Positions 33,809 to 37,181 of a stretch of DNA of 64,000 nucleotides are shown here, one piece after another. The notes under the pieces were generated by a model that worked only from the letters and a program-made list of their open reading frames with translations, was not told where the DNA came from and did not search any database. Every line of letters begins with the position of its first letter. Position 1 is the stretch's first letter. Made by a program: the position numbers and the translations under genes. The stretch lies in assembly GCA_947627715.1 (NCBI GenBank), contig CANQXK010000006.1:17355-81354 (forward strand), read 5' to 3'. The DNA comes from an uncultured Oscillospiraceae bacterium (lineage in GTDB: Bacteria > Bacillota > Clostridia > Oscillospirales > Oscillospiraceae).

Positions 33809-33891
33809 CCTCAAATTTTGCGGGGGACCCCCTGCATTTTTTGGGAGGGGAATAGTATTAACAAGACGTAGAGCAACAAGTATAAAGCCCT
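33809..33891. repeat. Direct repeat R1 (~84 bp) flanking the AT-rich cassette
   Basis: CCTCAAATTTTGCGGGGGACCCCCTGCATTTTTTGGGAGGGGAATAGTATTAACAAGACGTAGAGCAACAAGTATAAAGCCCT. It is about 88% identical to R2 by my manual alignment. Confidence 0.8.
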
Positions 33892-33995
33892 TCCAAAAGG
33901 TCTTCCGTGCACGCGGTTTCTCCGTTTTGCCAAAACGGTTTCACTCGACTTTTCTGCACCTCTGCGGTATTGTGTGTTGCCAAGGAGGAGTGAAA

Positions 33996-34259
33996 ATGGA
34001 GAATCTGATTAATGAACTCTATTACGGCAATCTCTGCCCAGTTGAACAGATGGGAGGGGGCACACCGAAGGAAAAAAAAATATTGAAGCGGATATACGAA
34101 AACGAGGAAAAACTGAGAGCGACTCTTGATGAACAAGAAAGAGCCATTCTCGACGCTATGAAAGATGACTGCCTCACCGTATCCAGCTCAATAGGCGAAA
34201 GACGCTTTTGCGAGGCGTTCAGTTTGGGAGCAAGGTTGATGGTCGAAATCCTCACATGA
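33996..34259 (+). CDS. Small helical protein of a family common on Clostridia mobile elements (ELYYGN... type; function unknown)
   Basis: MENLINELYYGNLCPVEQMGGGTPKEKKILKRIYENEEKLRATLDEQERAILDAMKDD...FSLGARLMVEIL. An AAGGAGGAG RBS lies 5 nt upstream of the ATG at 33996. The ORF-track start at 33927 is unsupported. Confidence 0.6.
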   Translation: MENLINELYYGNLCPVEQMGGGTPKEKKILKRIYENEEKLRATLDEQERAILDAMKDDCLTVSSSIGERRFCEAFSLGARLMVEILT

Positions 34260-34727
34260 GACCCTCAATAATTGCGGGAGTTCCCCACGAAAGGCAAGAT
34301 GCATGGTTGATTGTTTTCCGGCAAGGTAGTTATACCATAAGGGTCTCGAATCGTCAACGGTCTTAACGACACCGTAAGCACGCTGTTGGGCCTGTATGCG
34401 GTTTTAGGGCAAAGGGTAGAAATGTACACCTCCATGGTTGCAAAACGCCGTGTTGGGCGTTTGTGAGGGAAAAGCATTATCTTTTTCTGTTTTCATGAAT
34501 TAGCCCCCTTGTATTTTTAGTAATGTAGCTACCAAACCGTTACTACTATTATACCTATACTTGGAGGCTTAATTCCTCTCAATCTCCCTTTGAGCTTGCG
34601 TTAAGCTCGCCCATTTTGGCTTCGCTGAAGCCGTTCCCCTCCCCCGGTAGAACCGAGGGGCGTTGCATAAATGCATCAAACACATGGCACAGGGAGTAAA
34701 ACTCTCTACCCATAATTTAAAATCTAT

Positions 34728-35513
34728 TTAAGTATTGCCTAACAAGAAATTGATTGCAGGCATGCTGTGCTTAAATAAGGGAACTTTGAGCTTATTACAA
34801 ATTTTATCTAAATGTGCTATTTCATCAGAAACATCTACATATTTCATAGATTCTGCTAATGCTCCTTGCAAATATTCTGTATCACCATTGCAATATTTGA
34901 GAGTTTTTTCTCCTATATTTAAACGCATTAATATTTTATCATTGACCATAAGAGGCCCCGTGATTATACAATGGGCACTATTAGCAGCAAGTTCTACAAT
35001 TTTCTCTATTTCACTGTTTGGAATAATAAAGGAAGGGAAAAGAGGTCTAATTAGTAGCATAGTTCTAATGTTGCTGGTTTTTAGTTTTGATAAAAACTTT
35101 ATGCGTTCTGTTGTCTTAGGGATTAAGTGAGTATTTTCTGAAACATTTGCAGATTCCATTCCTATTACAGAACACGCCCAAAAAAGCATTTTATTTTGAG
35201 CTGTCATAATTTTGTTGAGTTCCAAGAGGCGCTGGTACTGGTTGTTATCCAATATATTTCTTGTAATGATCAATATATTACATTTGTAACGTTGAAAAAC
35301 TTTTTCACATAGTTCTAAACCTACTGCCGGATCAGCAAAGCTGTCACTACGTTGAGAAATATATACTATATCAAATTTTTCATTGGCAATCGAGGCAACA
35401 ATTTGATCGATGGTACGTTTTACGTCCCTTTCTATTTGATATGTATAACAGTGTTTACATTGAAACGGGCAGAAATCATCAACGGAAATTAACACACGTT
35501 TTTGTATATTCAT
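34728..35513 (-). CDS. Radical SAM enzyme (261 aa, no SPASM/twitch extension), unknown substrate
   Basis: An N-terminal CxxxCxxC motif: VDDFCPFQCKHCYTY. About 30% GC. Its ATG overlaps the stop of the upstream gene (ATGA at 35510-35513). Confidence 0.75.
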   Translation of the reverse strand: MNIQKRVLISVDDFCPFQCKHCYTYQIERDVKRTIDQIVASIANEKFDIVYISQRSDSFADPAVGLELCEKVFQRYKCNILIITRNILDNNQYQRLLELNKIMTAQNKMLFWACSVIGMESANVSENTHLIPKTTERIKFLSKLKTSNIRTMLLIRPLFPSFIIPNSEIEKIVELAANSAHCIITGPLMVNDKILMRLNIGEKTLKYCNGDTEYLQGALAESMKYVDVSDEIAHLDKICNKLKVPLFKHSMPAINFLLGNT

Positions 35514-36214
35514 CTATTTTCCCCTCCAATAATAACTTCAATTTTTTTGATCAAACCTATAGTATCAGTTTTGCTGATTTCTTCGAAAAGGTTTTTAATA
35601 ACGTAAAGCGCTTTAAAAATAAAGTTAATTTCATTTTCCCTAAAAACAAATGCTGGATAATTTTCTGTTTTTGTAGTAAAATCTATAGAACATGCGCCTA
35701 TAACCTTTGCGTCTCTTTTAATCAAAGTGGTAGCAATAGCAAAAATTTTATTGTTCACATCCCATATTGGTTTATTATATAGAGGAAATATATCATCATA
35801 ATCATCTGTAGATATCATTGTTAATTTATCATTTTCGTAAATATATGCGTTTTTCGGAGAATTATCGTTATACTGAAATTGTGCGAAAAGTGATTTGTTG
35901 TTTTTCCTAGTATTTTCAAAAAGGGCTCCAACAACTCCATATTTTATTGGCTTACTATCTATAGTTGCTTTTTTCCCTTCAATAATCGAATATCGTTTTT
36001 GGCTTTTTCTATCCAGCAATACTATATGATAATCTACTTTTAAATCATATGATATGTTTCCGAGAATATCTGTTATAGGAGATAGAACGCTTTCAAACAT
36101 ATTATTTAACGAATTGTCTGATAAAACTGATTGGAGATTTAGCAAAGTAATATCTTGACAATAGGGTTCTTGTTTTTTATTGTGTGGATTTTCTTGCGCT
36201 CCTATACTGGTCAT
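35510..36214 (-). CDS. Hypothetical 234-aa protein, possibly a GAF-like ligand-binding fold
   Basis: No catalytic motif was recognised. The alternating pattern (...HIVLLD...YGVVGALFEN...IFAIATTLIKRDAKVIGACSIDF...FIFKALYVIKNLFEEI) is reminiscent of GAF domains. It is translationally coupled on both sides. Confidence 0.4.
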   Translation of the reverse strand: MTSIGAQENPHNKKQEPYCQDITLLNLQSVLSDNSLNNMFESVLSPITDILGNISYDLKVDYHIVLLDRKSQKRYSIIEGKKATIDSKPIKYGVVGALFENTRKNNKSLFAQFQYNDNSPKNAYIYENDKLTMISTDDYDDIFPLYNKPIWDVNNKIFAIATTLIKRDAKVIGACSIDFTTKTENYPAFVFRENEINFIFKALYVIKNLFEEISKTDTIGLIKKIEVIIGGENR

Positions 36215-36410
36215 TTTTTCCTCCTATGTAAATCCTCTTCAATTTTTGCAATAATATCGGTTATTCTCATCTCTAATTCAGCAATATGATTGTCGGCTAT
36301 TTCGATATCTTCGAATTTATGGTTTGTACGCCATGTGTGCCAACTGTTATATTCGTTAATTAAATCATAAAATCATAAAATAGAAAAATGTTATTTTTGC
36401 TATCTTGGCT

Positions 36411-36698
36411 TTAAAATTCCTTGCATTGAAAAAGCAACTCCATTTTTTGCCCATATATCCATGCATCAAATACTGGCGTAGAAACAGGTTCGATATAATA
36501 ATATACTGCATCCTTATCTTTTCTTTGAATATCACGAATCGTTTTCTTGACGCAATCCAATTCAGATATAATATTATCTTTTATATTATTCCTTTCTCTC
36601 CGTATATTCCTTTTATCATATATGCTAGTAAAAAATATAGCCAATGTACAGCCAACACAAGTGGAAATTAAAGTCGGTATAAACTGTGACCAATCCAT
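36411..36698 (-). CDS. Small membrane-anchored protein (96 aa, one N-terminal TM helix), possibly the 5' part of a disrupted longer gene
   Basis: MDWSQFIPTLISTCVGCTLAIFFTSIYDKRNIRRERN..., preceded by an AGGGGA RBS. Downstream, a start-less 50-codon frame (36215-36367: ...NEYNSWHTWRTNHKFEDIEIADNHIAELEMRITDIIAKIEEDLHRRKK*) ends in a TGA that overlaps the ATG of the next gene. Confidence 0.45.
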   Translation of the reverse strand: MDWSQFIPTLISTCVGCTLAIFFTSIYDKRNIRRERNNIKDNIISELDCVKKTIRDIQRKDKDAVYYYIEPVSTPVFDAWIYGQKMELLFQCKEF

Positions 36699-37097
36699 AA
36701 TAGCATCCCCTAAGCTAATTATTTTGATATTTTCTTCTATCGTGCCGCCCATTCTCCAAAAATGCAACAAAGAGCATAAACATTTGTTAAATTTTCATAT
36801 AAAAACGTTCCTAAAAGCTATATGTTTTATCTAATAGTTTTTGTTACACAGTTTCTGTATTTTTTGATTTTTTGTGAAAGGAATATTTAAACATCATGCT
36901 TTCTTCAAACGCTTTTGATGTCAACGCTACCTGTAATGGCAAATTATGGCCCAACAGGACTGCTTTGGAGCTGAACATTGCATAACGTAATGTTTGTACT
37001 AATATTTAATTTATTAAAGATCTTTAACCGAGCGGCGAGATTTTTTCGTACAAGGCAAGAAAGACGGTGCCGGGAATGCAAATGTTCAACCGCGATA

Positions 37098-37181
37098 CCT
37101 CAAATTCTGCGGGGGGACCCCCTGCAATTTTTGGGAGGGGAATCATATTAACAAGACGTAAGGCAGCAAGAATAAAGCCCT
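37098..37181. repeat. Direct repeat R2 (~84 bp) flanking the AT-rich cassette
   Basis: CCTCAAATTCTGCGGGGGGACCCCCTGCAATTTTTGGGAGGGGAATCATATTAACAAGACGTAAGGCAGCAAGAATAAAGCCCT, in the same orientation as R1. Confidence 0.8.

Follow-up and report, generated by a model that had tools for sequence, protein, structure and literature searches.

A foreign AT-rich cassette between two copies of a dispersed backbone module in a composite tRNA-Thr island of an uncultured Oscillospiraceae bacterium

Contig CANQXK010000006.1 of an uncultured Oscillospiraceae bacterium (assembly GCA_947627715.1) carries, within the 64,000 nucleotides analysed here (positions 17,355 to 81,354 of the forward strand; hereafter the window), an AT-rich cassette flanked by two direct repeats of about 84 bp, which an earlier note on this DNA had taken for attachment or recombination sequence duplicated by the insertion of the cassette. 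Comparison with related genomes and metagenome contigs points to a different origin. The cassette probably lies between the heads of two elements in a composite island at a tRNA-Thr gene, and the repeat, called R below, is probably a module of the element backbone and not an insertion scar. The direct repeats would flank the cassette simply because it lies between two such heads, the left copy (R1) being best read as the island's own head copy and the right one (R2) as the remnant of a second element head.

R1 (33809-33891) and R2 (37098-37181) have the same orientation and are 86-90% identical, reaching 90% over an ungapped stretch of 70 nt (33822-33891 against 37112-37181), with a longest identical run of 16 nt. 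Their homology spans 95 nt (33798-33891 against 37087-37181) at 86% identity with one indel, and a 32-nt core pattern of the repeat matches the window at these two places only and was never met in 100 shuffled versions. The G+C content is 0.307 and 0.311 for 35001-37000, compared with 0.605-0.631 for 37001-40000, so that the earlier description of direct repeats bracketing a low-GC core (about 31%, against about 60% outside) is borne out. The same is true of the GC palindrome that it placed in each repeat: both copies hold GCGGGGG(G)ACCCCCTGC followed by a T-run, and a scanner rated both as terminator-like. Rfam gave no match at R or in the cassette, neither over the whole window at gathering thresholds nor in an E-value search of 33400-37400, and its sole matches were the tRNA and a tmRNA-like match on a copy of the attachment site (att).

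The cassette had also been regarded as foreign, secondarily acquired and devoid of a recombinase of its own, and all of this stands. It is absent from 37/37 other genomes of the genus, its DNA matched nothing in a plasmid collection, and no recombinase domain was found in its three open reading frames (ORFs) with Pfam, NCBIfam or PADLOC. More than ten independent metagenome assemblies contain the cassette together with its two junctions, the junction segments being 100% identical; misassembly was rejected, because these independent assemblies span both junctions. It has been seen in one lineage only and never in another R-bounded context.

The true attachment sites of the island are not R1 and R2. 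A perfect 46-bp copy of the 3' part of tRNA-Thr (33433-33478) marks its distal, integrase-distal end and aligns with 47744-47789, the proximal att, which forms the 3' 46 nt of the tRNA-Thr(CGT) gene on the reverse strand (47744-47819; ARAGORN and Rfam). The island thus delimited (33433-47789) is 14.3 kb long, and the same 46-mer bounds elements in relatives. With a direct repeat of the tRNA 3' part at both ends and a tyrosine recombinase beside the tRNA-proximal att, it is a composite integrative element, an ordinary tRNA-integrated tyrosine-integrase island with accretion. On the forward strand, the distal att is followed by a 330-bp non-coding arm of the backbone (dist330, 33479-33808), 77-91% identical copies of which occur after att in dozens of elements, and then by R1, consisting of a hairpin with its T-run and the motif TTAACA-N17-TATAAA, which precedes the DUF6809 leader in most family members. 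This leader (D1, 33892-33992, 85-95% identical in relatives) leads into a gene of conserved position for an 88-amino acid (aa) DUF6809 protein (33993-34259; Pfam PF20648, E=1.9e-21). Directly 3' of its stop codon stands R3 (about 34260-34300), a third, degenerate copy of the repeat with the hairpin part only and no T-run, of a type that is 90-100% conserved in minimal elements, and then the backbone segment J190 (34301-34481), which in minimal elements continues into the pre-integrase region.

Homology to the minimal elements stops at 34481. It is back only at about 46160, some 100 nt ahead of the integrase gene, where the pre-integrase region and the tyrosine integrase resume on the forward strand (46160-47511; integrase 46264-47511, matching Pfam Phage_integrase with E=6e-19 and Phage_int_SAM_3). 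The cargo of the island, from 34482 to about 46160, consists of two blocks. The first is the foreign, strain-specific segment, or cassette proper (34482-37085, core about 31% GC), which is without homolog in the genus and 100% identical in several metagenome contigs. The second (37202-46089, reverse strand) is transcribed towards R2 and has homologous blocks in the genomes G007, G019 and others; Pfam identifies in it an amidase, two ABC-2 permeases, an ABC ATPase, a 768-aa protein, a histidine kinase and a response regulator. Between the blocks lies the putative second head remnant (37086-37181, forward strand), made of about 12 nt of arm and R2. (Here and below, G, L and C numbers are our handles for genomes, loci and contigs.)

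The earlier note had allowed that its view of the repeat would fall if R proved to be a dispersed element, and the genome-wide search found just that. BLAST of R1 against the whole assembly returned, besides the pair in the window, one match each on C3, C58 and C79, that on C79 being weak, which makes four to five copies in total; R occurs in 16/36 congeners with up to 14 matches per genome, and in 0/24 sampled genomes from other families of the order. The features of the window were mapped onto 20 congener regions and 72 loci found with the integrase (about 90 loci). Among the loci collected there are 58 distinct R sequences, and an alignment of 35 copies gives a sharply bounded core of about 85 nt. 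Upstream, R is mostly flanked by the conserved arm or by the 3' end of DUF6809, and downstream mostly by the leader and then DUF6809, while its 3' edge abuts at least nine unrelated flanks within a 4-nt window.

A single canonical order emerges from these loci: the 46-bp att, the 330-bp arm, R, D1, DUF6809, a full second copy (R') or the degenerate R3, J190, about 380 bp, the integrase and att. The only backbone ORFs of the family are those of the integrase and DUF6809, and together with the non-coding backbone they make up a minimal element of about 2.9 kb (e.g. L029 = G024:C46). Many elements have two copies, R and R', two loci (L037 and L042) show tandem R-D1-DUF6809-R'-D1-DUF6809 duplications, and most elements carry R but no cassette. 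Tandem stacks, two to four elements deep, occur at tRNA-Thr in L025 (G002:C49), L029, L043, L067, L071 and L074; in L025, att copies lie at 3315, 12319, 15854 and 18708, the last one within the intact tRNA. Since elements stack in tandem, most same-strand R clusters are rows of whole elements in which every element contributes its own R. Their hosts are known as metagenome-assembled genomes (MAGs) of uncultured Oscillospiraceae from rabbit gut, and more distant integrases (54-65%) are found in Lawsonibacter and Oscillibacter. A second att variant, 78% identical, occurs in relatives and indicates a second tRNA target. Copy number, tandem arrays and the two tRNA targets in relatives lend indirect support to the view that such islands may excise and integrate.

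The junctions of accessory DNA in relatives bear directly on the question of whether the repeat was duplicated by insertion. An insert that had duplicated its repeats would be expected to abut them at a fixed crossover, and this is contradicted by some 590 bp of backbone (33892-34481, comprising D1, DUF6809, R3 and J190) that part R1 from the foreign DNA. On the other side, about 12 nt of arm separate the foreign DNA of the window from R2 downstream; at the corresponding junctions the stretch of arm that precedes R is about 88 nt long in G007 and about 35 nt in L086, L128 and L027. The position in the arm at which AT-rich DNA is joined thus varies, so that no precise site of recombination is involved, and the variable junctions of accessory DNA with the element head would fit illegitimate joins and deletions rather than a defined crossover site. 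L086, L128 and L027 share one insert of about 820 bp, which begins after arm position ~295 and is followed by R (L086 424-1246, L128 1406-2229, L027 1137-1961).

A cassette-free relative that carries the repeat only once, such as the earlier note had proposed to look for, does exist: G019 has a complete arm, one R and then the amidase, with neither DUF6809 nor AT-rich DNA. This arrangement is non-discriminating, since it is equally expected if R is a part of the backbone. G007, with about 88 nt of arm, R and the amidase, was rejected as a clean empty site; to the left of its arm lies a different AT-rich segment, with 25-44% GC. This AT-rich module (L062, G007:C33:20000-25046, reverse strand 361-3270) encodes sce7726-family (E=1e-53) and sce7725-family (E=1e-109) proteins, and a 366-aa protein with no NCBIfam family match. 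The R-amidase junction is identical in the present genome (G000), G019 and G007. G013 and G027 have no R at this place, their amidase operon meeting the arm at about its position 283, and other genomes hold this operon in other contexts.

Architecture, copy distribution, junctions and the foreign origin of the cassette are observed; the route of accretion and deletion that might have led to them is our reconstruction. Two elements would have come to lie in tandem at tRNA-Thr, or an equivalent exchange would have taken place, and a deletion would then have removed the inner integrase, att and most of the arm, fusing the cargo of the first element to the R of the second. The amidase/ABC/two-component block would have brought its own partial head with it, about 12 nt of arm and R2, so that R would have been neither duplicated nor used as a crossover site when the cassette entered. 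Some points weigh against this reconstruction. No precursor tandem array carrying the cassette was found among the loci collected, and the step from the forms seen in G007 or G019 to the window takes at least two further rearrangements. The right-hand end of the amidase block meets the pre-integrase region in the window and J190 positions 81-171 in G007, and this difference calls for at least one more rearrangement.

The strongest rival explanation, to which we give a clearly smaller chance, is that homologous or unequal recombination takes place between R copies and so brings blocks in or removes them, D1-DUF6809-R3-J190-cassette being gained or lost by exchange between R copies with a single-R element of the G019 type. 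Similar behaviour is known from the promoter early stem-loop elements (PeSLs) of T4-type phages. In these a sigma-70-like promoter is combined with a terminator that forms a polyG/polyC stem-loop; they lie on either side of variable genes and bring about the shuffling of modules (Arbiol et al. 2010, PMC2839356; Comeau et al. 2014, PMC4122927). The make-up of R resembles that of the PeSLs (PMC2839356, PMC4122927), its edges are sharp against many different flanks, the arm-R-amidase order of G019 is the exact predicted product of recombination between R1 and R2, and the tandem DUF6809 duplications in L037 and L042 resemble unequal crossovers between R copies. Against such exchange, the distance from R at which AT-rich DNA joins the arm varies, and breakpoints between strains do not gather at R, as set out below. 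The 16 nt that R1 and R2 share as their longest identical run are, moreover, short for efficient exchange by recombination of the RecA type.

Strain variation was available from metagenome contigs, of which L049, L051 and L052 have low coverage and may be chimeric. All 17 substitutions in L047 fall within the arm (33488-33694), while L052 and L049 carry an R1/DUF6809 allele that is 14% divergent (33818-34214), which places the variant breakpoints in the arm and near the 3' end of DUF6809 (about 34214) and not at R. L051 (ERZ27249610) misses 59 bp (37079-37137), namely the arm remnant and the hairpin half of R2; this deletion lies between two GGGAAT motifs, a microhomology, and is possibly an assembly artefact in a contig of about 4x coverage. 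Taken as they are, the variant contigs would show mosaicism with breakpoints outside R. Over 22 distinct arm-R-DUF6809 units, a weak test, the distance correlation was 0.12 across R, compared with control values of 0.16 within the arm and 0.29 within DUF6809, and so shows no special drop at R. The whole element head is, by these comparisons, apparently mosaic, with R as no detectable hotspot, and R as a preferred recombination breakpoint was rejected for want of a signal in either the variant breakpoints or the distance correlation.

Much less probable is that R serves mainly as a site of protein binding or transfer, for instance as an origin of transfer (oriT) that would allow mobilisation in trans, or as an operator for DUF6809 or the integrase, with its promoter and terminator motifs being incidental. 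R is about 93% conserved across species, against about 83% for the arm and about 80% for J190, its left half forms an imperfect dyad of roughly 32-44 nt, and minimal elements are without relaxase and would need a cis site if mobilised. Speaking against it, the two copies (R and R') in many elements and the R-like halves before the integrase are odd for an oriT, no relaxase partner was identified, and the outer stem is 83% paired with no covariation.

Just as improbable is the original notion that R1 and R2 are attL/attR-type duplications left when a site-specific recombinase encoded elsewhere inserted the cassette, as in integrons or integrative and mobilizable elements (IMEs): direct repeats with an imperfect palindrome do bracket foreign DNA without recombinase, and a gene for a large serine recombinase lies 2 kb to the left, but R is present in most family members without the cassette, the foreign DNA abuts neither R1 nor the R2 core, the junction position varies between genomes, the cassette was found in one lineage only and in no further R-bounded context, and the serine recombinase sits outside the island att site in a separate accreted block. 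An integron was rejected outright, as Pfam detects no IntI-type integrase in the window and R is conserved in sequence, not in structure.

As to what R does in the backbone, it most likely insulates by means of a hairpin terminator and, downstream of this, provides DUF6809 with a sigma-70-type promoter, a function we infer from its layout and conservation. R begins with a G/C hairpin of 7-8 bp with its T-run, continues with the conserved GGGAGGGGAAT and TTAACA-N17-TATAAA, and ends 4-7 nt past the -10 box. Across the 58 distinct copies the -35 and -10 boxes show conservation of 0.96 and 0.94, compared with 0.86 for the 17-nt spacer, whose length is kept in most copies, and R and DUF6809 are co-oriented. 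A sequence resembling R (positions 19-83, about 76% identity) also stands upstream of, and co-oriented with, the integrase in about ten elements. Cargo is transcribed towards R or R' (the DUF6809 module) in 10/10 slots surveyed, as in both blocks of the window, and the hairpin is therefore positioned where it would stop convergent transcripts. Several features fit this function less well: the -10 box TATAAA is without a final T and a scanner gives no call, and the hairpin, while 95% paired, shows covariation no better than shuffles. R is also conserved beyond what a promoter by itself would need, and this, with the many flanks met by its 3' edge, leaves room for a role in recombination or binding. 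An extended outer stem of R (CCCCTC...GAGGGG) was considered and found no support.

Elsewhere in this genome, on the reverse strand of C79:1-760, a 68-aa excisionase-like helix-turn-helix gene (TIGR01764, E=3e-4, below cutoff) is immediately preceded by the -10 end of an R-like sequence (CAACAAATATAAAGCCC) and followed by a Tn916-type integrase. A literature search found no papers on DUF6809. In three more distant loci (L116-L118, Oscillibacter/Oscillospiraceae, with integrases 54-56% identical), a DUF6809-like ORF (5788-6048) abuts or overlaps the integrase start (from 6001) in a xis-int-like manner, and DUF6809 may be a directionality factor or a regulator.

The cassette itself encodes three proteins on the reverse strand. 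The first gene (36411-36770, an ORF) specifies a small membrane-like protein of 113-119 aa, called as 113 aa in metagenome contigs, with no family match in Pfam, NCBIfam or PADLOC. The second (35510-36214) encodes a 234-aa partner, tentatively GAF-like, and is translationally coupled to the third by a 4-nt overlap; homologs of this partner are 37-42% identical, one of them adjoining a homolog of the third gene, and its structural model is of pLDDT 68.7 with weak GAF matches. The third gene (34728-35513) encodes a 261-aa protein that we predict to be a radical SAM enzyme, on the strength of a CX3CX2C motif at residues 15-22 and of a modelled partial TIM-barrel fold. Its cysteines C15, C19 and C22 are invariant in 18 homologs, its model has a pLDDT of 90.6, and the best fold matches are NifB, radical SAM methyltransferases and viperins (TM 0.53-0.62, E 2e-6 to 3e-4). 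Its score against Pfam PF04055 Radical_SAM, 21.1, is below the cutoff of 29.5, and this sub-threshold hit was the only one to a family: no cassette protein has a significant match in PADLOC, NCBIfam or Pfam. A sequence profile search of the PDB with the family of this protein gave no match, the fold search alone providing matches. Homologs are rare, with just 22 clusters among 5.8e9 proteins, and beside them are found either genes of the Trypco1/trypsin, TIR and nSTAND/S8 protease types or the gene of a homologous partner, about 250 aa long. The cassette gene set is not covered by any PADLOC model, and we consider it plausible that these three genes (membrane, GAF-like and radical SAM) form a candidate defence-type accessory system.

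Throughout the family, cargo occupies one slot, between the DUF6809 module and the integrase. In at least three genomes this slot is filled by a recurrent 5.3-kb four-gene module (331, ~800, 249 and 336 aa; GC 0.55), found at L025 5095-10418, L039, L071, L093 and L095. A pho/pst operon lies between arm-R and an R-like-integrase pair in L028 (G002:C5, 2479-16567), and in the present genome (C3:60354-66800) it is the immediate neighbour of R, of a DUF6809 remnant and of a fragment of a serine recombinase. Both loci have a PhoR-type kinase, a response regulator and a PstB-type ABC ATPase, and PhoU and PstSCA were recognised by eye in C3 only; this operon may be cargo of the element or a second hotspot. 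An IS3-family transposase beside the distal att of the window (region 32110-33478) has a counterpart with 88% aa identity at the same relative position, about 175 bp from the 46-bp att, in L082/L083 (region 1979-3346), from a MAG binned as Acetatifactor.

Further to the left in the window, the 3' flank of tRNA-Thr and its terminator (47711-47750) are repeated at about 26165-26205 (within 26115-26205), and the 7.2 kb from there to the distal att (26205-33432) therefore look like a further block accreted at this same tRNA. It contains an IS3 remnant, a TNT-like gene, an rplA fragment, the large serine recombinase and IS3. The last ~200 residues of the ORF at 28676-29644 are ribosomal protein L1 (Pfam, E=3e-69) without its normal N-terminus; 89% identical to the full rplA on contig C25, this truncated extra copy beside the serine recombinase is possibly the trace of a former integration site. 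Two giant ORFs on the minus strand (1931-12781 and 13778-23734) encode 3616 and 3318 aa.

The island resembles other tRNA-integrated islands and IMEs in that a 46-bp duplication of the tRNA 3' part bounds it and the integrase lies next to the intact tRNA, and it resembles accreting tRNA islands in that relatives stack two to four elements at one tRNA. Site-specific tandem accretion is familiar from the cis-mobilizable and the integrative and conjugative elements (CIME/ICE) of Streptococcus thermophilus, and where elements stack in this manner at a tRNA, composite islands with internal remnants are to be expected. It differs from known tRNA islands in the very small size of the basic element (about 2.9 kb, the integrase and the 88-aa DUF6809 protein), in having no identified relaxase or oriT, and in its highly conserved 85-nt R, of which one element can have two or more copies. 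With integron attC and CALIN arrays the cassette shares repeated sites that separate cassettes without recombinase. Unlike attC, which is conserved in structure, R is conserved in sequence, forms a simple hairpin with no R''-L''/L'-R' organisation and contains no fixed cassette junction; and unlike in integrons, most same-strand R arrays are tandem whole elements, each with its own integrase.

R can also be compared with PeSLs. Like these, it would be a short conserved composite of a stem-loop terminator and a promoter; both are repeated in the same orientation around variable accessory genes, and in both, indels between relatives are bounded by copies (here the window against G019, and the L037/L042 duplications). 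PeSLs are found in the hyperplastic regions of lytic phages, at about 50 copies per genome, and usually drive a downstream ORFan, and their promoter and terminator activities as well as mini-circles have been demonstrated by experiment (PMC2839356, PMC4122927). R differs further in that its host is an integrative element, that its cargo is convergent with it and not driven by it, and that no breakpoint preference was detected at R with the variant breakpoints or with the weak distance correlation (n=22). A tentative idea at most, and one that we likewise hold to be rather unlikely, is that cargo is shuffled in the minimal integrase-DUF6809 elements at tRNA-Thr and that R serves this system as its site of docking or exchange. 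R would then be the integrative-element counterpart of phage PeSLs, or the site of some recombinase, through which accessory modules and defence modules, the rare radical SAM cassette included, would be captured and exchanged between Oscillospiraceae of the rabbit gut.

If R is nonetheless such an exchange site, the PeSL idea would extend from lytic phages to integrative elements. On the preferred reading of R as a backbone module, the cassette illustrates that foreign DNA may be enclosed by direct repeats that no insertion has left behind; here they are the regulatory-looking module of a mobile element present twice. The rare gene set for a membrane, a GAF-like and a radical SAM protein is apparently undescribed as a candidate defence system. 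Also apparently undescribed are the abundant minimal integrase-DUF6809 elements that stack at tRNA-Thr in gut Oscillospiraceae and hold a fixed, inverted cargo slot, and with them a first functional context for DUF6809.

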